A stretch of DNA of 64,000 nucleotides from positions 41,688-105,687 of IMG/VR virus record IMGVR_UViG_3300025030_000054, one strand, 5' to 3'. The stretch is from a virus. How positions within the stretch are numbered: position 1 is the stretch's first letter; every line of letters starts with the position of its first letter. The position numbers were made by a program, and so were the translations under genes. This document shows, one piece after another, positions 33,884 to 44,415 of the stretch. The notes under the pieces were generated by a model, which worked only from the letters and a program-made list of their open reading frames with translations, ran no database searches and was not told the DNA's origin.

Positions 33884-33951
33884 AAGTGTCACTAAAAGGG
33901 GTGGGTCAAACCGCCCCTTTAATTTTAACTTTAGCAAGAGGAGTTTTAAAA

Positions 33952-36885
33952 ATGTACTATGTCCCGATAAGTTACACAAGAGAATTTGTAGACCTGATGA
34001 TGTACCTAAAAACAAAGTATGGCCAGAAGTTGTTTGATCTGGAAGGTATAGGCAAGCAACTTGATATGTGCAAATTCTCTAAGGATTTTTTCTCAGCTAC
34101 TACTACGGCAGATGCCAGTGTAGACGCAAATGCCAACGTCACAGACACTTCCAATATTGCTTACGGTATTGAACTACCTAAACCTTATTTCAAACTCAAT
34201 AGCTATTTCATGTTGTGGAAGCATATGAGAAAACTATATGGCATGGAGGTTGCCAACTCTACTATAGAGCAGCAGCTTACAGGGTCGGTATACGTAAATG
34301 ATTTTCTTGGAATCGCTGCTGGAAGTCCGTACTGCTTTAATTACAGTACCTACGATATCATGCTTCTGGGCCTACCTATGGTGGATAAAATTAAGTCGGT
34401 AGCCCCCAAATACCTGTATAGTTTCAAAAGCCAACTTGAGCAGTTTGTTGTAATTGCTTCTAACTCTACCCTCGGTGCTGCTGGGCTGGCTGATCTTCTG
34501 ATTGTAATGAGCTACTATGTCAAAAATATTCTAAGTACTAAATCAGATGCTGGATTTTCTTTCAAGGATGAGGCGGCTTGCTGGAACTACGTTAAAGAAA
34601 CTTTGGTGAGTTTTATCTACACTATTAACCAGCCAATGCGAGGCAATCAGTCACCGTTTACTAATGTATCTATTTATGACTCAGAGTTTTTGAATTCTCT
34701 TTGCCCCCAATACGTGTTTCCTGACGGCAGCACTCCAGATATATACTTAGTTCAGCGGATTCAGGAACTCTTCTTGGATGTTATGAACTCAGAAATGAAA
34801 CGCACTCCTGTGACTTTCCCAATTACCACAGCTTGCTTCTCTGTAAATGACGATAAGAAAATTACGGACGAAGCATTCATTGAGTTCATCGCTGAAAAGA
34901 ACACAGAGTTTGGCTTTATCAATATGTACATAGGTAAGAGTTCAACGCTCTCAAGTTGCTGTTTCACTGGCGATCAAAAAGTTCTCGTGAGGGATAGCTA
35001 TGCGGGTGTGAGGTTAATGCCTATTGAGAAATACGCCACCACCCCCTTTGAAGAAAAACCTAACGCAACCGTATACCATGATGGGTCTTGGGTTAAAGGC
35101 AAAACGGTAAAAACTAAATACACCGGCAAACTGTACACTATCAAAACTGCTAATAAAAAAGAAGTCACTGTGACTGCCGACCATATTTTTCCCACACAGA
35201 ATGGGGATAAGAATGCTGCGGATATCACTTTAGATGAAATGTTACTTTTTAATAGTTCTCCACTCACACCAGCTATGAGGGGAACCCAAGAGTTAACCTA
35301 CGAAGACGGTCTGTTGATAGGTGCTTACTTAGGAGATGGAAGTATTTATTACAGAAACAATGGGGCATCTGTTGAAGTTACTATGTCGGTAACTGAGGTG
35401 AAACTTGAAAGACTGCCCTTCTTGAAGTCTTGGAATATTTACCCTAGCAAAAATAATGTGGTATTTGCTAAGAGCTATTCTTTAGAAACAGCAGCTAAGA
35501 TTGAAGAGTGGGTTACTGTGGGTAGAGCGCCAGATAAGCGTTTGTCTATGCAGGTACTAGACCAACCTTACGAGTTTAGAGAAGGAATTTTAGACGGACT
35601 TTACGCCACTGACGGAGGCAATAGCAACCGAATTTATACCACATCAGAAGGTCTGGCAGAGGACTTGGAAGTCCTTCTTACCAGCCTCGGAAGACAGAGT
35701 ATAATGGACGTGTCTGACAGGACTGACGAGCCTGTAGTGATTAGGGGAGAAGAGTTCAACAGAAACTACCCGCTACATTGTGTGAGATGGTACGCCCCTA
35801 AAAATTCAAGAAAACAGGAAGGTATATATCTTAAGAGAAATGGTAATACCTATTTCAAGGCAACTGAGATAGCCGTGAGGGAGGTTGTTGAAGAAGAAGT
35901 TTACTGCTTTGAGGTTCTAAATACAGATGAGCCGTATTTCACGCTACCTAATGGAATTATAACCCACAATTGTCGCCTCAGAAGTGATACAGATAACGAG
36001 TACTTCAATAGTTTTGGTTCTGGTAGCTCTAAGATTGGCTCATTGGGTGTTACTACAATTAATCTTCCGAGGCTTGCTTTTAAAACAGCAGGGCTATCAA
36101 AAGATACTGCCGAACGAGAAGCCTATTTCTGGAGTGAGCTTAAAGAGTTGGTAGGCATTGCCGCTAGAGTCAACCACACTAAGCGAGATATCGTAAAGAG
36201 CAGAATTGACAGTAATAATCTGCCGCTGTACTCTTTAGGTTTTATGGACCTATCTAAACAATACTCAACGCTAGGGGTAAACGGTCTTAATGAGTGCCTA
36301 GAAATTTTAGGGCTTAACATTTTGGCGAGTGATGGGCAAGAATTTGTTGTTCGAATACTCGAAACCATAAACTCTGAAAATGATAAATTCCAAAAGGCTT
36401 ACAAAACTCCCCATAACTGCGAGCAAATTCCAGGAGAAAATGTCTCTATTAAACTTGCAGATAAAGATAGGTTTATGGGGTATAACGATAGGTACGAACT
36501 TTATAGCAATCAGTTTATACCCCTCACAACTAAAGCTGACCTGCTAGACCGTATTCATCTTCAAGGTTTGTTTGACAGTCATTTTTCGGGTGGCGCTATT
36601 TGTCACTTGAATATTGAAGAGAAGGTAGAAGATACTAAGAAAGTAGTAGAACTTATCAAGATGTGTGCAGAGAAGGGTGTAATTTATTTTGCCTTAAACT
36701 ACAATCTGCAACGTTGTTCTGAAGGCCACATGTCTGTAGGTAAGAAGGAAACTTGTGGGGTATGTGGCGGGGAAGTGATAGATAACTATACAAGGGTTGT
36801 TGGGTTCCTGACCAATGTAAAGAACTGGCATAAGGTAAGACGCGAGCAAGATTATCCTGAAAGACAGTTTTATAAAGAGGCTTAG
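33952..36885 (+). CDS. nrdD: Anaerobic (class III) ribonucleotide reductase, intein-containing
   Basis: GAGGAG RBS; QSPFTN, SSC/CRL finger loop, PGEN, C..GH...CGVCG, RVVGFL glycyl-radical motif. Confidence 0.93.
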   Translation: MYYVPISYTREFVDLMMYLKTKYGQKLFDLEGIGKQLDMCKFSKDFFSATTTADASVDANANVTDTSNIAYGIELPKPYFKLNSYFMLWKHMRKLYGMEVANSTIEQQLTGSVYVNDFLGIAAGSPYCFNYSTYDIMLLGLPMVDKIKSVAPKYLYSFKSQLEQFVVIASNSTLGAAGLADLLIVMSYYVKNILSTKSDAGFSFKDEAACWNYVKETLVSFIYTINQPMRGNQSPFTNVSIYDSEFLNSLCPQYVFPDGSTPDIYLVQRIQELFLDVMNSEMKRTPVTFPITTACFSVNDDKKITDEAFIEFIAEKNTEFGFINMYIGKSSTLSSCCFTGDQKVLVRDSYAGVRLMPIEKYATTPFEEKPNATVYHDGSWVKGKTVKTKYTGKLYTIKTANKKEVTVTADHIFPTQNGDKNAADITLDEMLLFNSSPLTPAMRGTQELTYEDGLLIGAYLGDGSIYYRNNGASVEVTMSVTEVKLERLPFLKSWNIYPSKNNVVFAKSYSLETAAKIEEWVTVGRAPDKRLSMQVLDQPYEFREGILDGLYATDGGNSNRIYTTSEGLAEDLEVLLTSLGRQSIMDVSDRTDEPVVIRGEEFNRNYPLHCVRWYAPKNSRKQEGIYLKRNGNTYFKATEIAVREVVEEEVYCFEVLNTDEPYFTLPNGIITHNCRLRSDTDNEYFNSFGSGSSKIGSLGVTTINLPRLAFKTAGLSKDTAEREAYFWSELKELVGIAARVNHTKRDIVKSRIDSNNLPLYSLGFMDLSKQYSTLGVNGLNECLEILGLNILASDGQEFVVRILETINSENDKFQKAYKTPHNCEQIPGENVSIKLADKDRFMGYNDRYELYSNQFIPLTTKADLLDRIHLQGLFDSHFSGGAICHLNIEEKVEDTKKVVELIKMCAEKGVIYFALNYNLQRCSEGHMSVGKKETCGVCGGEVIDNYTRVVGFLTNVKNWHKVRREQDYPERQFYKEA
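34960..35970 (+). mobile_element. Intein with LAGLIDADG homing endonuclease (337 aa)
   Basis: Starts CFTGDQKV, block B VTADHIF, LIGAYLGDG and LDGLYATDG, ends ITHN before C; splicing restores SSCCRL. Confidence 0.93.
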
Positions 36886-36892
36886 AGTATAA

Positions 36893-37351
36893 GTGAGATT
36901 CTTAACTACACAGTATACTCTTTCTAAAGGTGCATTAGAAATTTACTTTTCAGGTTGTAAAGGACCGCATTGTAGGGGTTGCCATAACCCCGAAACTCAG
37001 TCTTTTAGTTTAGGTACAGAAGTAGGTGCTAAAGAACTATCTAGCATTATTAAGGCTAAGGTGCAGTCTTTTGGTACGCTTATAGAAAGTATAATGATCT
37101 TAGGGGGCGAGCCTCTAGACCAACCACAGAAAGAACTAGAAGAGTTTATTCAAGCACTGTCAGATCTTAACCTACCTATCTGGCTGTTTACTAGGTATGA
37201 ACTTTCACAAGTACCTTTTAGTTTGCGTATAAAGTTCAGTTATATTAAGACTGGAAGGTACCTCGAAGAGTTCAAGGGCGAAAAGACTCAGTACGGCATT
37301 ACGTTAGCAACTAGCAATCAAAAAATTCATAAAAGAGGTTTAGACTACTAA
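36893..37351 (+). CDS. nrdG: Anaerobic RNR activase (radical SAM)
   Basis: SGCKGPHCRGCHN, LGGEP, KTGRY, SNQ. Confidence 0.92.
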   Translation: MRFLTTQYTLSKGALEIYFSGCKGPHCRGCHNPETQSFSLGTEVGAKELSSIIKAKVQSFGTLIESIMILGGEPLDQPQKELEEFIQALSDLNLPIWLFTRYELSQVPFSLRIKFSYIKTGRYLEEFKGEKTQYGITLATSNQKIHKRGLDY

Positions 37352-38533: not shown

Positions 38534-38959
38534 TCACTCAACCTTCAGCTTCCCAGCTCGCCACAATTCCCTCTGGCGCCGCCAACTCGGGTCCTCAATA
38601 TGCGGTAAATCCAAGAAGCTCTTAAAATAGAACCCAGCAGTCAGACCTAACTTAACTGCTATATCAGCCATTATTTTAAACAGTTTTTTATTTGCAGACC
38701 AGTCGAAGTTTTTACCGTCCGCTGTCAAAGGCCATAGATCAACAGCTAGTCCGTAGTTATGAGCGGAACTTCCCGGAGGCGCGTTACTAACTACTTTTCC
38801 TGGAGTCGTCCTGCCTTGGGCGTAGATAGCTTTCTGATGTGCCATTGTTCGTCGCCCATCACTAATTCCCCACTTCCTTCCAGTAGCCTTCTCAGTCTGC
38901 TTTATAAGTTCCTCTACCTTTGCCTTAAATGCTGGTTCAAGGGTATCTATCTTCCTCAT
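38534..38959 (-). CDS. Endolysin, M15-family peptidase
   Basis: AGGAG RBS before ATG 38959; G.RT...Q..IYAQGRT, SAHNYGLAVD, DLPHIE. Confidence 0.88.
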   Translation of the reverse strand: MRKIDTLEPAFKAKVEELIKQTEKATGRKWGISDGRRTMAHQKAIYAQGRTTPGKVVSNAPPGSSAHNYGLAVDLWPLTADGKNFDWSANKKLFKIMADIAVKLGLTAGFYFKSFLDLPHIEDPSWRRQRELWRAGKLKVE

Positions 38960-38969
38960 TTTAAATCTC

Positions 38970-40634
38970 CTAAAATAATCCCAACTCTTTATAATCGCCC
39001 CAGTACTCTTCCACGCTAACATAGTTCTTGCTATAAAGGTCGCAGTGGTTTGTAAAGTTCTTTCCGTGGTTAATATGAACACTAGAATTAATACAATGCC
39101 AAGGGTTTCTCACTAAATCAGGCTCAAGCATTACCTGACCTCTTAGCAAAGCCTCTTTAACTTTACTCTCAAAATGACCTATAGCATCACTAAAAAGCAT
39201 GGTCATCTGGTGCAAAGGAATAGAGTCATGCACATGCTCATAGCTCTGAAAGCCCTCAGAACATACTCCTTTTAAGTTAGTATTATAAATCACCCCACTA
39301 TCAAAGTTAGGGTAATCGAAGTAGCCCTCTGGATAAAGTACGTCATGTTCTAAGAAACTCACATATTTGTAAGACCCAGTGGCTTCCGCTCGGTAAAGTA
39401 ACTGAAGGATCTGCAAAGTAATGTTTAGATGGTTGCTACTCTGGGTCTGCGCTATGAGTTCTGGGAAAGGATTATTTTCAATAGTTTTCCAAGTGCTTGT
39501 TAAAATGTCTGCCTTGCCCTTAGATATCCTCTCCAAATTACCTAAAACATTACTCACAACACTATCGTCATTATTATTTGTATAGAATATTCCAAGCCTG
39601 TTACAAGTGCCTTCTGGGATAATTAGATAGTCATTTTCAGGGATTACTTTAGAGTACTCAACGTCATCCAGTTTGTACTTAACCACTAGGTGCTTTAGTA
39701 TGCCTTCTTGGGGGTCCCACCCGGCTAGGCTATTATTCACGCAAACATTAAGGCCACTACCTCTAACCAACCGCCTAAGATTAGCTGTTACGTTAGCCCC
39801 ACCGTATGATGCTTCTATAATCTCTAATTTCACAGTCTTATCCTTTGCAGCGGTTATTTGAGCAGCTATTGAGTTAACCCTATCAGCACCAAAATGTTCT
39901 TCGATAGGCTTTAAATCAAGTCCGAGTTCGTTGAAACCTATGATATAATTCCTAATCCTATCGTCGTAAATCATAGGGTAAGGTATATCTCCCATACCAG
40001 TTTTGAAGAGATGCACCCAAGACAGGAATGGAAGGCAGATAGTTTTATGCCCTGCCTTTCTATACTTACTGTGAATGTAACCCTCTTCCCCACCAAAGCC
40101 TGCAAAGTCTGGGTTAAATCCTAGCCAAGCATCTTTCCTACAAGCAAATAGACCAAGACCCTGCATAGGAATTTCGTAGGGTTCTGAGTTAGGGTCTATT
40201 GAAGCAGCTCGCCAAGTCCCCCACATACCACTTGCCCACTCATCGTTGAAAGCGTCTGCATAATTAACTAGATCGTCGTATCTCAACGGACCTTGCAGAA
40301 GATCTTTACAGTCAGGATTTTTAGAAGTCCAATCTTTAAAGCTAGCCATAGCACCTTCTGTAAGTAAAACATGGGTATCAATGCACATAACCCAGTCACC
40401 TAGAGCCTCTCTAAATACAAGGTCTCTAGGTGCCGAAGTTCCTGTTTTTTCTGTGTAAAGAATGTAGCGAGTTCCGTAGGTACCGTCTATAAAACTTTTT
40501 AGACGCTTATCACCATAGTTGTCTATCACTAAAATCTCAGTGTCTGTCATATCTTGGTACATTAAGAGAGATTGGACAGTGAACCAAACTTCAGTAAAAT
40601 TATTATAACTCGCCATTCCTATAGTTAGTTTCAT
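38970..40634 (-). CDS. Multi-domain glycosyltransferase (ppGalNAc-T-like GT-A, SUEL-lectin-like, second GT-A)
   Basis: EILVIDN, DTH, GLF, FGGEE, VHLFK..PYP; IIEASYG..NVT...N...WDP..G..KHL.VKY; VSFLEHDVLY. Confidence 0.8.
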   Translation of the reverse strand: MKLTIGMASYNNFTEVWFTVQSLLMYQDMTDTEILVIDNYGDKRLKSFIDGTYGTRYILYTEKTGTSAPRDLVFREALGDWVMCIDTHVLLTEGAMASFKDWTSKNPDCKDLLQGPLRYDDLVNYADAFNDEWASGMWGTWRAASIDPNSEPYEIPMQGLGLFACRKDAWLGFNPDFAGFGGEEGYIHSKYRKAGHKTICLPFLSWVHLFKTGMGDIPYPMIYDDRIRNYIIGFNELGLDLKPIEEHFGADRVNSIAAQITAAKDKTVKLEIIEASYGGANVTANLRRLVRGSGLNVCVNNSLAGWDPQEGILKHLVVKYKLDDVEYSKVIPENDYLIIPEGTCNRLGIFYTNNNDDSVVSNVLGNLERISKGKADILTSTWKTIENNPFPELIAQTQSSNHLNITLQILQLLYRAEATGSYKYVSFLEHDVLYPEGYFDYPNFDSGVIYNTNLKGVCSEGFQSYEHVHDSIPLHQMTMLFSDAIGHFESKVKEALLRGQVMLEPDLVRNPWHCINSSVHINHGKNFTNHCDLYSKNYVSVEEYWGDYKELGLF

Positions 40635-41869
40635 ATTAGACTCTTAGTTCCCACGCTTGTTTTAATTCTAACTGCTCCCTCATTTGAATACAACGCAAAT
40701 GATAGAATACCGTTAGATGTTTTAATTCTTAAAGGCCCGTTTTGAGATGTTTGAACAGGCACTTTAGTTGACCCTGCGAGTAATGTTATAAATGGTATGA
40801 AAGGTGCTGCTGTAGTGGTTGTAGTTGGATTACTTGTTGTCGTAGCTTGTATAGTTGTAGTTGTCGGTTGAACTGTTGTAGTAGCCGCCAAAGTTGTTGT
40901 AGGAACTAAGGTAGTTGTGGTAGTTGGAGCTACGGTTGTTGTAGGGGCAGCTGTTGTGGTAGCCAGCGTAATCACCACCGTATCGCTCACCCCTGCGCTC
41001 ACATTCCCCGCCGCGTCCTTGGCCCACGCCCAGAGCGTCTTGATCCCTGCTTCCGCAAACGTGTGCGTCTCAGGTGCCGTCGCGCTCCATCCTGAGTCTC
41101 CTGCAAGCGGTGGGGTTGCTGACTCGGTGAGCTTGTAACCTGTTACTGCTACATCGTCCGTTGCGAGTAGAGATGTGATCGGGACGGTGAGGGTGGTTGA
41201 GGTTGCGGGGATAGTGAAGTAGGTAACGGCCGGGAAAACTATCGCACCATCTGCCGCCAAAAACGGTGTGAGTGCAGACATGATGCCAGTGACCAAAACA
41301 TCCTTCGCCGCCGCGTTGACATGTACGCCGTCAACCAGATAATCAGCTTTCCAGTTGGCGTTGACGGTCATCGCCGTCTGCCAATTGACAAACGGCAGAC
41401 CCCATTCTGTCGCCAGAGATTGCAGCCTATTGCGTAGCGGATCGGTATCGGTCAGATTTCTGTGGTAGGTGAAGCCATCTGTTGATTCCGCATGTGCGGG
41501 CGCAGCCACAAGCAACATGAGGGGATAGCTTGCCATCCCGTCCAAGAGTGCGCGATAATCCCTCACCCTCTGTTCGTAGGCGTCAGGGTTATAGCGTGTC
41601 GGATTTCCAGAGATAAAGTTGTAGTATCCGTCATTGGTCCCGCCGTGAAGGAACACAACCAAGTCAGGCGCAAACGGTGTTACTTGAGTCGAGAAGTTGT
41701 TCAGCGCATCGTAAGAAGTAGACCCCCCAACCCCACTGTTGGTAATAGTGTATGTTGCTGCCGGATATGAATCATTGAGCGCGGCCTGTAGCTTAGCCGC
41801 TAAATCCCCAAAGGTTGCGTCGTTGTATTCGGTGTTGCTGTCGCCTACTAGGGTTATTTTGGTTGTCAT
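40631..41869 (-). CDS. SGNH/GDSL hydrolase plus Ig-like domain plus Thr-rich tract
   Basis: GDSNT, N.GVGG, GTND, DGVH; WAWAKDAAGNVS; PTTT repeats. Confidence 0.82.
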   Translation of the reverse strand: MTTKITLVGDSNTEYNDATFGDLAAKLQAALNDSYPAATYTITNSGVGGSTSYDALNNFSTQVTPFAPDLVVFLHGGTNDGYYNFISGNPTRYNPDAYEQRVRDYRALLDGMASYPLMLLVAAPAHAESTDGFTYHRNLTDTDPLRNRLQSLATEWGLPFVNWQTAMTVNANWKADYLVDGVHVNAAAKDVLVTGIMSALTPFLAADGAIVFPAVTYFTIPATSTTLTVPITSLLATDDVAVTGYKLTESATPPLAGDSGWSATAPETHTFAEAGIKTLWAWAKDAAGNVSAGVSDTVVITLATTTAAPTTTVAPTTTTTLVPTTTLAATTTVQPTTTTIQATTTSNPTTTTTAAPFIPFITLLAGSTKVPVQTSQNGPLRIKTSNGILSFALYSNEGAVRIKTSVGTKSLI

Positions 41870-41877
41870 TTTGTCCC

Positions 41878-44415
41878 CTAGTACTCTTTGTAATTCGTTA
41901 CTGTGAAATCTGAAGCATTACTATCTGTATAAAAGTCCATACCTAAACACTCATAAAAAGTTGACCCTGCGTCTTTTATGTCTATGCCAAAAGTTAGCCA
42001 ACCTGTAGTTGCTAGCTGAGTACGGCTTGAATTTAAGACTGACAGCTTTGCCGTAGTGCCGCTAACTTCCAGTTTCGCAATATAGGTTGTCCCTGCCGTT
42101 ACTGTAGGGGTGTCAATGACACCTGAATATGTATCAGATGGTGTGTACCACCTCAGCCTAAGAACATTAGTACTTCCCGTACCAGCCGGTGATGCATACA
42201 CCCATAATCTACGTGTAGATGCGATAGTCGCACCATCCCCAACGACCGGAGCGGAAGATTTTTCAACAAGGCCGAATATATCACCGCCTCCTTCCGTGAA
42301 TACAGAAGCAGCAACAGAAAATGTTACTTCGTAACTCCTCACATTGGCTTTGCTGAAATTCTTAGAATACATAAAAGCAGCTTCCCATCCCAATGAAAGG
42401 ATTCTTAAGCTGGATGTTTCCGAAACCGACCCCCCATCCCCGGTGACTACTTGCCACTTAGCTGTATCAAGTGACGAATTGTTAAAATTATCGGAGTATA
42501 ACGGCGGAGTCCCGCTAACCTCCGCCGACTCCGTACTCCCCGCCCCGTTGATAGCCGCGAGGCTGTAATAGTACGTGGTCCCGTTGGTGCGCCCTGTGTG
42601 AGTGTACGGGAGGGTGACGCCGGTTATCGTATTGCTACGGGTGCCTGCTACTGTGCCCCATTTGAGGTCGTAGCTGGTCGCGCCGGTGCCGCCGGATGTT
42701 AGGGCGATGACGTTTTGAGTGTCGCCGGGGGTGACGCTGATGACCGGCTGAGTGGGAGCGGCTGCGGTTGTGACAGTAAACGTATCGCTAACCCCACCAA
42801 TGGTAAGTGTGGTATTTACTGCTGTACTAGCACTGCCAGAACTTGTCACCTTGACCTTGACAGTATCACCATTGATGACCGTTCCCGATGTGCTTGTGTA
42901 CGCTCCACCATTCTTGCTGTATTCGCCACCTGTTATCGAAATAGTAGCAGCATCATTTATTCCTGCTACAGTGATCGTGTTGGACTCTGTAGCTGTACTC
43001 ACCGCAACGCCTGTCTGATCGGTAAAGGTGAAAGCATCGGGAGTCGTATCTGCCACTACAGTAACGACAGAGAAAGTATCAGTCACATCACCTATGGTTA
43101 AGAACGCTGTCGCTGAACTGTTATACCCAGTAGAGCTGTAAAGCTGTACCCTTACGCTGTCGCCGTTTACTACAGTTCCGTCCACATTTGTGAATGCACC
43201 CTCATTGACAGAATACCAGCCACTGAGTACGTGAATGGCAGCAGGTGCATTTATACCAGAGACAGTTATCGGAGCCGAGGTAATCAGGGTGTTTAGTGCT
43301 ACGCTTGATTGATCCACGAAGACGAATCCATCGGGCGTCGTATCTGGTGCTACTGTAGTTGTCGGACTTGCTGTAGTTGTCGGTGCTACTGTAGTTGTCG
43401 GTGCTACTGTTGTGGTAGTAGTTGTTGTAGGCACTGCAGTAGTTGTAGCTGCTAAAGTTGTAGTCGTAGGGTTAGCCGTAGTTGTCGGACTTGCTGTAGT
43501 TGTCGGTGCTACGGTAGTCGTAGTTTCTATTAACGTAGTGACGGTGAAAGAGTCTGTAACTCCGCCTATGGTTAAATACCCAGTCGTTACAGTCCCATAG
43601 TCAGGAGAACTGTAAAGTTGTACTTTTACGGTATCCCCATTCACCACTGTACCATCCGCATTTGTAAACGGGCCGTCATTGATAGAATAATTAGCGCCAG
43701 TTATACTTATCGGAGTTGCCGTATTAATACCATCCACAGTTATACCAAAGAACAGTGTAATTAAGCTATTCCGGGCTACATTCGTTTCATTGATAAAATT
43801 AAATGTATTAGGAGTGGTATCTGGTACTGCTGTAGTTGTTGGAGCCACTGTTGTAGGTACTGCTGTAGTTGTGGCTGCTACTGTAGTAGTAGTTGGTGCT
43901 ATAGTTGTAGTAGTAGGTACTGCCGTAGTAGTAGGTGCTACAGTAGTCGTAGGTGCTACCGTAGTTGTAGGTGTTACAGTAGTTGTTCCTAACAAATCGG
44001 TCCTAATAACAAACGTATAGCCTTGTGCAAACAACGCATCTTCCTGCACTTGTGTAGAAGCCTCTCCTACAAGTATGCCGGACTGACCAATCCTAGCATC
44101 CAGTTTCCGAATTACTTCTTGGGTTAAATGAAAGGCAAACTCGCTGTCACCTGCATAAATTTCTGCAAGCCCCAAGTTAGGAGTCCAGTCAGTAGTTATC
44201 TGGTAAGAAGAACCAGCTACGGAAATTCCAGCGTAGTTAGGGCTGATCTGAATTTGGGTGTTACTATCCACAGATATAATACCGTAAATAGCGGCTACTC
44301 CGTAAACTTTAAAAGTATCCCCAACACCAACCTTACTGAGCCAAGAAGTTCCCACCCCAGTCACTATATTTGTACCTTGATCTACTGATACTGTACCAAC
44401 CTGATACTGTGCCAT
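41878..44415 (-). CDS. Tail fibre-like protein with two mucin-like Thr/Pro tracts, three DTTP-led beta repeats, FN3 and C-terminal beta-sandwich
   Basis: N-terminus YQVGTVSV..GT..VTGVGTSW typical of fibre anchors; (P/A)TTT(V/A) repeats; YTHTGRTNGTTYYY. Confidence 0.75.
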   Translation of the reverse strand: MAQYQVGTVSVDQGTNIVTGVGTSWLSKVGVGDTFKVYGVAAIYGIISVDSNTQIQISPNYAGISVAGSSYQITTDWTPNLGLAEIYAGDSEFAFHLTQEVIRKLDARIGQSGILVGEASTQVQEDALFAQGYTFVIRTDLLGTTTVTPTTTVAPTTTVAPTTTAVPTTTTIAPTTTTVAATTTAVPTTVAPTTTAVPDTTPNTFNFINETNVARNSLITLFFGITVDGINTATPISITGANYSINDGPFTNADGTVVNGDTVKVQLYSSPDYGTVTTGYLTIGGVTDSFTVTTLIETTTTVAPTTTASPTTTANPTTTTLAATTTAVPTTTTTTTVAPTTTVAPTTTASPTTTVAPDTTPDGFVFVDQSSVALNTLITSAPITVSGINAPAAIHVLSGWYSVNEGAFTNVDGTVVNGDSVRVQLYSSTGYNSSATAFLTIGDVTDTFSVVTVVADTTPDAFTFTDQTGVAVSTATESNTITVAGINDAATISITGGEYSKNGGAYTSTSGTVINGDTVKVKVTSSGSASTAVNTTLTIGGVSDTFTVTTAAAPTQPVISVTPGDTQNVIALTSGGTGATSYDLKWGTVAGTRSNTITGVTLPYTHTGRTNGTTYYYSLAAINGAGSTESAEVSGTPPLYSDNFNNSSLDTAKWQVVTGDGGSVSETSSLRILSLGWEAAFMYSKNFSKANVRSYEVTFSVAASVFTEGGGDIFGLVEKSSAPVVGDGATIASTRRLWVYASPAGTGSTNVLRLRWYTPSDTYSGVIDTPTVTAGTTYIAKLEVSGTTAKLSVLNSSRTQLATTGWLTFGIDIKDAGSTFYECLGMDFYTDSNASDFTVTNYKEY

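Follow-up and report, generated by a model that had tools for sequence, protein, structure and literature searches.

The stretch of DNA considered here (the window) spans 64,000 nucleotides, positions 41,688 to 105,687 of IMG/VR virus record IMGVR_UViG_3300025030_000054. The full record is 105,687 bp long, is estimated to be 93% complete and comes from an uncultured tailed phage. The gene in question, P0001, is present in one copy in this 105.7-kb genome. Its product is predicted to join a glycosyltransferase (GT) domain of the GT-A fold, a lectin-like domain and a second GT-A domain in one polypeptide (Table 1). The original prediction, made from the letters of the sequence, had proposed just such a protein at this position. 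The open reading frame (ORF) is real, though it is read from the minus strand; the same interval read on the plus strand has stop codons throughout. The motifs quoted in support of the proposal are also where they were said to be. These are R70, D86-T-H88, PMQGLGLF (156-163), FGGEE (180-184), HLFK (208-211) and PYP (218-220), followed by IIEASYG (272-278), WDP (306-308), KHL (314-316) and VSFLEHDVLY (425-434). They are not chance strings, because they are conserved in homologues. Queries with the whole protein gave no match in PHROGs, NCBIfam or the PDB sequences, and nothing in the phage GenBank collection matched by DNA or by protein.

P0001 is located in a late block of minus-strand genes. 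The block starts with a tape-measure protein, followed by a tail-tip protein resembling lambda J and by another large tail protein, and continues with a DUF4376 tail-fibre protein, P0270, P0269, P0001, an M15/VanY endolysin and a class-3 lipase. The ATG of P0001 and the stop codon of P0269 share 4 nt. Immediately past the stop codon of P0001 come a GGAG ribosome-binding site and the endolysin ATG, and the sole strong terminator of this strand is downstream of the lipase gene. Because of this organization, P0001 is predicted to be expressed together with the structural and lysis genes, as part of a late tail-lysis operon. The endolysin ORF is listed with a GTG start 113 nt inside the P0001 gene. 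Judged from the sequence, its start is more likely to be the ATG at ~38958, which has the GGAG site and lies directly past the P0001 stop.

Table 1. Features of the window, followed by poly-Thr ORFs at bacterial loci (coordinates of the respective locus). Domain assignments and protein functions are predictions.
Feature	Coordinates	Strand	Length	Description (basis)
P0001	38970..40634	-	554 aa	Soluble three-domain glycosyltransferase: GT-A + lectin-like + GT-A
N-domain, residues 1-255	39870..40634	-		GT27-like GT-A catalytic domain (Pfam, model, Foldseek, VIA, profile alignment)
Middle domain, residues ~268-340	39615..39833	-		Cys-poor SUEL/rhamnose-binding-lectin-like domain (profile search of PDB sequences)
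C-domain, residues 345-554	38973..39602	-		Second GT-A domain, unannotated family (model, VIA, Foldseek)
P0269	40631..41869	-	412 aa	SGNH/GDSL esterase, immunoglobulin-like region, Thr/Pro tract; candidate acceptor
P0269 tract, residues 300-356	40802-40972		57 aa	Thr/Pro tract of type TTTAAPTTTVAPTTTTT
P0270	41878..44415	-	845 aa	Fibre-like, two Thr/Pro tracts; candidate acceptor
P0270 tract, residues 139-204	43804-44001		66 aa	Thr/Pro tract
P0270 tract, residues 289-357	43345-43551		69 aa	Thr/Pro tract
G+C-rich patch	41000-41499			56-57% G+C, inside P0270/P0269 fibre genes
G+C-rich patch	42500-42999			56-57% G+C, inside P0270/P0269 fibre genes
M15/VanY endolysin (as listed)	38534-39082	-		GTG start at 39082
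NrdD	33886-36885	+	999 aa	Anaerobic ribonucleotide reductase, split by an intein that carries a LAGLIDADG endonuclease domain
Radical-SAM activase	36893-37351			Just after NrdD
Locus L143	8511-8900			Bacterial Tat/poly-Thr ORF
Locus L147	8445-8954			Bacterial Tat/poly-Thr ORF
Locus L119	7727-8137			Bacterial Tat/poly-Thr ORF
Locus L135	8782-9084			Bacterial Tat/poly-Thr ORF
Locus L155	13242-13577	-		Bacterial Tat/poly-Thr ORF
Locus L101	9296-9880			Bacterial Tat/poly-Thr ORF
Locus L112	2411-3166			Bacterial Tat/poly-Thr ORF

The N-terminal domain (N-domain) has D38, R70, D86-x-H88, a G-loop (156-163), GGEE (181-184) and H208, the C-terminal His (C-His), as its key residues. Pfam matches PF00535 (Glycos_transf_2) to residues 5-98 alone, at 33.8 bits against a gathering cut-off of 23.3. 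All 48 phage homologues of the domain match this family too, and D86, H88, G159, F180, G181 and H208 are invariant across them. A profile made from the 48 sequences aligned with the GT2 enzymes TarP and TarS over the nucleotide-binding half only. With the polypeptide N-acetylgalactosaminyltransferases (ppGalNAc-Ts) of family GT27 the alignment extended over profile positions 32-224; the enzymes concerned were ppGalNAc-T10, T7, T4 and one from Toxoplasma. In the alignment with GalNAc-T10, DSH is paired with DSH, GGLF with GGLF and FGGEE with WGGEQ, and His208 falls on the C-terminal His of GT27.

The AlphaFold model of the N-domain agrees with this. Its predicted local distance difference test score (pLDDT) is 95.3, and the sole dip is at residues 211-220, which we take to be the counterpart of the flexible catalytic loop of GalNAc-Ts. 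When the model was compared with the PDB by Foldseek, the best 50 matches were all GT27 (E ~1e-13, TMq <=0.79). As these matches include peptide- and glycopeptide-bound complexes, the nearest structures do possess a peptide-binding groove, and the GT27 likeness put forward by the original prediction stands. A second comparison used VIA, an all-against-representatives structural alignment that is independent of Foldseek. Here GalNAc-T1 scored Z 22.1 (245/255 residues, root mean square deviation 3.0) and TgGalNAc-T3 Z 21.0, ahead of the chondroitin polymerase K4CP (18.7), B4GALNT1 (17.9) and ordinary GT2 enzymes (16-17). This ranking agrees with a published GT-A clade in which GT27, GT60, GT7 and GT2-CHS fall together (PMC7185993). 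In GT27 and GT60, both of which O-glycosylate polypeptides, the usual DxD is replaced by DxH (PMC7185993).

Together, profile and model show the predicted N-domain to be a minimal GT27-like GT-A domain, with a metal site composed of DxH and the C-terminal His. The DxH, G-loop, C-terminal His and following flexible loop occur in the same order in GT27 enzymes and in P0001, and a probable GGE motif takes the corresponding place. In both, the catalytic domain is joined to a lectin domain, and in both the acceptors are presumed to be Thr-rich and mucin-like. However, the N-domain is not a formal GT27 member, because it is ~75 residues shorter (~255 aa as opposed to the ~330 aa of the GT27 catalytic domain, with an identity of 14-16%) and lacks an anchor, a ricin-type lectin and a match to Glyco_transf_7C. 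GT27 enzymes have a type II membrane anchor and reside in the Golgi, whereas P0001 is predicted to be cytoplasmic and without an anchor. The absence of an anchor follows from the model, in which strand 1 of the fold (residues 3-9) begins already at residue 3, right at the start of the protein, and P0001 is accordingly predicted to be soluble. GT27 enzymes also carry a ricin beta-trefoil, and no ricin-lectin Pfam family was found in P0001 at E <=1. Instead, P0001 has a lectin of SUEL type, along with a second GT-A domain, which has no counterpart in GT27 enzymes.

One could ask whether the substrate is a glycan of the host envelope (lipopolysaccharide, O-antigen, capsule or cell-wall polysaccharide), with the Thr tracts of the neighbouring proteins serving as linkers only. 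The purpose might be superinfection exclusion, or the altered glycan might be the one recognised by the neighbouring esterase-bearing fibre. That neighbour, P0269, does have an SGNH esterase, which is typical of glycan-deacetylating fibres. However, no Gtr-type flippase or acceptor-side partner adjoins the P0001 gene, the model has no membrane segment and the gene appears to belong to the late tail-lysis operon. By Pfam the N-domain belongs to the GT2 superfamily, of which many phage representatives remodel polysaccharides of the cell surface, and the next-best structural matches are the polysaccharide enzymes K4CP, TarS, TarP and WrtF. Nevertheless, the GT27 scores in VIA exceed those of the polysaccharide GTs. 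Envelope modification also does not predict the coupling to poly-Thr genes, specific in both strand and position, that phages and bacteria show (see below). It is considered quite improbable, and modification of a protein acceptor is the reading followed here.

The N-domain is encoded by 443 viral stretches, and more than 2,000 proteins carry it at 45-60% identity with many different fusion partners. In bacterial proteins P0010-P0118, which have the domain at 50-60% identity, the partners include radical-SAM/SPASM, PqqD, FemAB/GNAT and methyltransferase domains. Others in this set are DoxX, redoxin, core-2/I-branching (GT14) and DUF7164. By their sequences, these fusions hint at pathways of peptide modification, similar to those of ribosomally synthesised and post-translationally modified peptides, and at multi-step glycan pathways.

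The middle domain was recognised by its sequence profile. A profile of 61 homologues (35 of them with the middle domain) gave six PDB sequence matches, and all were SUEL/rhamnose-binding lectins: 5h4s at E 1e-12, CSL3 at 8e-8, CSL2 at 6e-4 and, weakly, three latrophilin-type domains. With a profile of four sequences, SUEL-type lectin domains took the top four PDB ranks. Pfam on P0001 itself reports only DnaJ-like_C11_C for this region, below threshold. In two orthologues SUEL_Lectin (PF02140) is found at E ~0.001 with 19-20 bits, below its gathering threshold of 31.4. Within the 262-554 model the domain is a small alpha/beta unit with pLDDT above 90. A search of the ESM Atlas with it gave a best score of 0.76, under the lead threshold.

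The likeness to the rhamnose-binding lectins (CSL3, CSL2, 5h4s and the latrophilin domain; PF02140) consists of a YG signature and an N..FGDP.xG..K.L signature. The middle-domain family has I..A.YG, resembling the ANYGR of the lectins, then DVT and N..xGxDP..G..K.L. In P0001 the counterparts of the YGR and DPC..KYL types are ASYGG (275-279) and GWDPQEGILKHL (305-316). Y277, G278, N301, D307, K314 and L316 are retained in 28-33 of the 35 homologues. N301, D307 and K314, which presumably correspond to sugar-contacting residues of SUEL/rhamnose-binding lectins, are retained in 32-33. The HMMER alignment is restricted to the C-terminal ~35 residues, with the signature N..FGDPxxGxxKxL. There are also clear differences from these lectins. 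Residues 262-344 contain a single Cys, the four disulfides are absent and the cysteine of DPC is replaced. Moreover, the P0001 module is predicted to be intracellular and is fused to enzymes. Nevertheless, the profile comparison shows the middle domain to be a probable homologue of the SUEL/rhamnose-binding lectins, at least in its C-terminal half. This bears out the lectin-like middle domain of the original prediction. Its wider parallel with animal ppGalNAc-Ts holds in that a catalytic domain is joined to a lectin. It is looser in that the lectin is of SUEL rather than ricin type and, as explained below, accompanies the C-domain.

The C-domain has FYTNN at 350-354, E429-H430-D431, G461, E504-P505 and H520. 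It had no Pfam match at E <=10, and the C-domain part of the 61-sequence profile had no PDB sequence match. In an exhaustive hidden Markov model search of 1.84 billion representatives it was found in only 178 clusters. By sequence it is best described as a hitherto undescribed family. The relationship to GTs becomes visible in the predicted structure (residues 262-554, pLDDT 94.2). With VIA, model residues 82-262 give Z 13.5-14.1 with the GT2 enzymes 6p61, TarP, TarS and SpsA and with the fucosyltransferase WrtF, and Foldseek finds B4GALNT1, BoGT6a, SpsA and PBCV-1 A64R (E ~5e-6). E429-H430-D431, part of the motif that the original prediction had called GT-A-like, is right behind strand 4 (model strand 163-168), the usual site of the GT-A DxD. 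G461, E504-P505 and H520 follow in the canonical sequence of G-loop, xED and C-His. All of these elements are at least 90% conserved in the 61 homologues, and they are probably the catalytic residues. Because the GT-A fold is accompanied by conserved motifs in canonical order, the best reading of the model is that the C-domain is a second glycosyltransferase.

An alternative is that O-glycosylation of the Thr tracts is indeed the task of the N-domain, but that the lectin and C-domain do not extend the glycan. They might act on another acceptor, decorate the glycan by nucleotidyl or phospho transfer, or serve in binding or regulation without any catalysis. The nucleotidyltransferases IspD and GlmU reach Z 12-13 in VIA, near the Z of 14 for GTs. 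However, strand 1 of the C-domain starts with FYTNN, which resembles the 'PTYN' of GT2 and not the GxGxR of nucleotidyltransferases, and EHD, G461, E504 and H520 are conserved in the GT-A order. The lack of any known sequence family leaves room for such a function, and so does the frequent occurrence of the C-domain without the N-domain. Against this, the two are repeatedly fused or encoded side by side (see below). A role other than extension is thought unlikely, and a second sugar transfer by the C-domain is preferred.

How the three domains travel is informative in this respect. Among ~156 clusters that hold the C-domain, it stands alone in 59 and follows the lectin in 37 (lectin-C proteins of ~290 aa); the reverse, C-lectin order occurs in 4. 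Fusions of N-domain and C-domain account for ~35 clusters. The complete N-lectin-C order is found in 5, namely the clade of this phage and one larger protein. At viral loci L017-19, L032-33 and L052, N- and C-domain are separate neighbouring genes. At L052 (9986-11382) the N-domain gene is followed by an overlapping C-domain gene that has no lectin module. The nearest viral structure prediction is an uncharacterised lectin-C protein of 289 aa (TM 0.92). Since lectin-C architectures are common, and since N- and C-domain are fused or adjacent again and again, the sequences suggest that the lectin is functionally tied to the C-domain and that the C-domain joins the pathway of the N-domain repeatedly. 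Variants exist as well. Among the lectin-C variants, P0129 (391 aa) has two tandem lectin-like domains ahead of its C-domain, and in P0211, P0216 and P0218 the lectin-like domain is placed behind the C-domain.

What might the acceptor be? P0269 and P0270 are the sole poly-Thr ORFs of the whole 105.7-kb genome, and both are directly upstream of P0001. P0269 is probably, from its sequence, a tail-associated glycan esterase. Its C-terminus has a short repeat (..PLRIKTSNG.. / ..AVRIKTSVG..). The two G+C-rich patches within these fibre genes stand out from the ~40% around them, which is consistent with domains having been captured from a source of higher G+C content.

The association is not peculiar to this phage. 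For the counts that follow, an ORF was taken as poly-Thr when Thr made up 50% or more of some 30-aa window. From 80 fetched phage N-domain loci, 69 remained after dereplication, and flanks were counted within 5 kb on any strand. A poly-Thr ORF is upstream in 33/55 of the dereplicated loci and downstream in 3/51. In total, these 69 loci have 56 poly-Thr ORFs, of which 53 are upstream and 35 in the first 2 kb upstream. This amounts to a density of 2.8 per 10 kb in those 2 kb versus ~0.1 elsewhere. Every poly-Thr ORF at the 80 fetched loci shares the strand of the GT gene. For N-domain loci in bacterial genomes of many phyla, the counts on the GT strand, again within 5 kb, are 26/65 upstream and 5/60 downstream, and more than 600 kb of bacterial flank has no poly-Thr ORF farther away than 4 kb. 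In phages as in bacteria, genes of the N-domain family and poly-Thr genes are tightly linked. A co-variation test was also attempted, in which relatives of the fibre N-terminus without a GT were sought. The search turned up only three near-identical contigs.

The bacterial partners are instructive. At least 7 of the nine poly-Thr ORFs examined encode small proteins in which a poly-Thr tail comes after a twin-arginine (Tat) signal (Table 1), and several have the motif PVV.S.VVPAHA in common. By sequence, they look like Tat-exported mucin-like proteins that are glycosylated in the cytoplasm. A Tat signal fits with modification by a soluble cytoplasmic enzyme ahead of export. The same can be said of three fused N-domain homologues that are named 'TatA' in a source database.

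This linkage also bears on the idea that P0001 glycosylates hypermodified bases of the phage DNA. Such an idea does not account for an N-domain family that adjoins Tat-signal poly-Thr proteins in bacteria. There is precedent for it, since other virus-encoded GTs do so and hypermodification of DNA by phage GTs is known (work cited in PMC12619734). However, the P0001 gene is in the tail/lysis block rather than the replication block, and the 93%-complete genome had no match to a pyrimidine hydroxymethylase of the thymidylate-synthase type, a family on which sugar modification of DNA depends. Finally, there is no DNA GT among the best 50 structural matches of the N-domain. Glycosylation of DNA bases is extremely improbable.

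Taken together, sequence and genome context make it somewhat more probable than not that P0001 acts as a soluble protein O-glycosyltransferase, expressed late by the phage, and that it decorates the TTTxxP-type tracts of P0269 and P0270 in the host cytoplasm. In this scenario the N-domain would transfer a first sugar from a UDP-sugar onto Thr residues of the fibre linkers, probably with retention of configuration as in GT27 and GT60. The lectin-like domain would bind this first sugar, perhaps one of galactose, rhamnose or N-acetylgalactosamine-type configuration, and so keep the C-domain on the glycosylated tract. The C-domain would then attach a second sugar. The product would be a densely glycosylated, stiff and protease-resistant spacer in the fibres, a mucin-like 'bottle-brush'. 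In other words, the division of labour into initiating, binding and extending that the original prediction envisaged is one that P0001 may well have.

Several points weigh against this proposal. The Pfam match of the N-domain is limited to its generic GT2 half, and PF02709 (Glyco_transf_7C), which covers the Gal/GalNAc-T motif region with WGGEN, is matched at E <=0.01 by 0/48 N-domain homologues. As for the C-domain, nucleotidyltransferases score almost as well as GTs. At the chosen threshold, 40% of the phage N-domain loci have no poly-Thr ORF, and the Thr/Pro tracts may simply be linkers that give flexibility. The bacterial fusions to radical-SAM/SPASM, FemAB, PqqD and methyltransferase domains mean that other acceptors are possible.

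Family GT60 offers another comparison. Some of its members are soluble and cytoplasmic, and they include the cytoplasmic GlcNAc-transferase that modifies a hydroxyproline of Skp1. P0001 resembles these polypeptide alpha-GlcNAc-transferases of Dictyostelium and trypanosomatids in its DxH and in its proposed O-glycosylation of polypeptides, and they belong to the clade of GT27 (PMC7185993). The Pfam scan of P0001 at E <=1 listed no GT60 family, and the fold searches gave no GT60 structure.

There is also precedent for a virus building glycans on its own proteins outside the secretory pathway. The A064R protein of PBCV-1 is a viral polypeptide with multiple transferases that builds a virion-protein glycan without the endoplasmic reticulum or Golgi. 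Foldseek matched the P0001 C-domain to, among others, the N-terminal GT-A domain of A064R (2p6w), a likeness at the level of the fold only (TMt 0.47). However, the PBCV-1 glycan is N-linked and is found on the capsid of a eukaryotic virus, and A064R has neither a lectin domain nor a GT27-like domain. Virion glycosylation by phage-encoded GTs in the host cytoplasm has been described for the mycobacteriophages Che8, Corndog and Myrna (Freeman et al., 2023, cited in PMC12619734). Mycobacteriophages are the only phages for which glycosylation of particle proteins is experimentally documented (cited in PMC12619734). Their glycans are on C-terminal tails of capsid and tail-tube subunits, whereas the candidate sites of P0001 are in internal Thr/Pro linkers of fibres. 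The phages themselves differ as well. The tail-tip protein encoded alongside P0001 is most like those of phages of Gram-negative bacteria; its relatives, only ~26% identical, are from Serratia, E. coli and Klebsiella phages.

What does this imply more broadly? In the literature that was searched, no description was found of GT27-like enzymes from phages or bacteria that have poly-Thr proteins as partners. Mucin-type O-glycosylation is, to our knowledge, regarded as eukaryotic and Golgi-based. It is tentatively proposed, as somewhat less probable than not, that phages and many bacteria possess a cytoplasmic counterpart, a minimal GT27-like enzyme genetically paired with poly-Thr acceptors, which would be fibres of the virion in phages and mucin-like proteins exported by Tat in bacteria. 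In P0001 this system would be condensed into an initiator, a reader and an extender, with a SUEL lectin in the role of the ricin lectin, and it possibly stands near the prokaryotic root of GT27 and GT60. Its distinctive feature, if the predicted roles are right, is that a single polypeptide unites initiator, lectin and second transferase. P0001 is a candidate that is compact and soluble, consists of one polypeptide and has the genes of its likely acceptors beside it. If the proposal is true, there would be a new, lectin-coupled family of GT-A enzymes, and a small enzyme would be available for producing mucin-like glycoproteins in bacteria. A bacterial and phage lineage would take its place beside GT27 and GT60. 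Fibres with glycan-shielded, mucin-like segments would then be common in environmental phages, where they would affect host recognition, protease resistance and stickiness.

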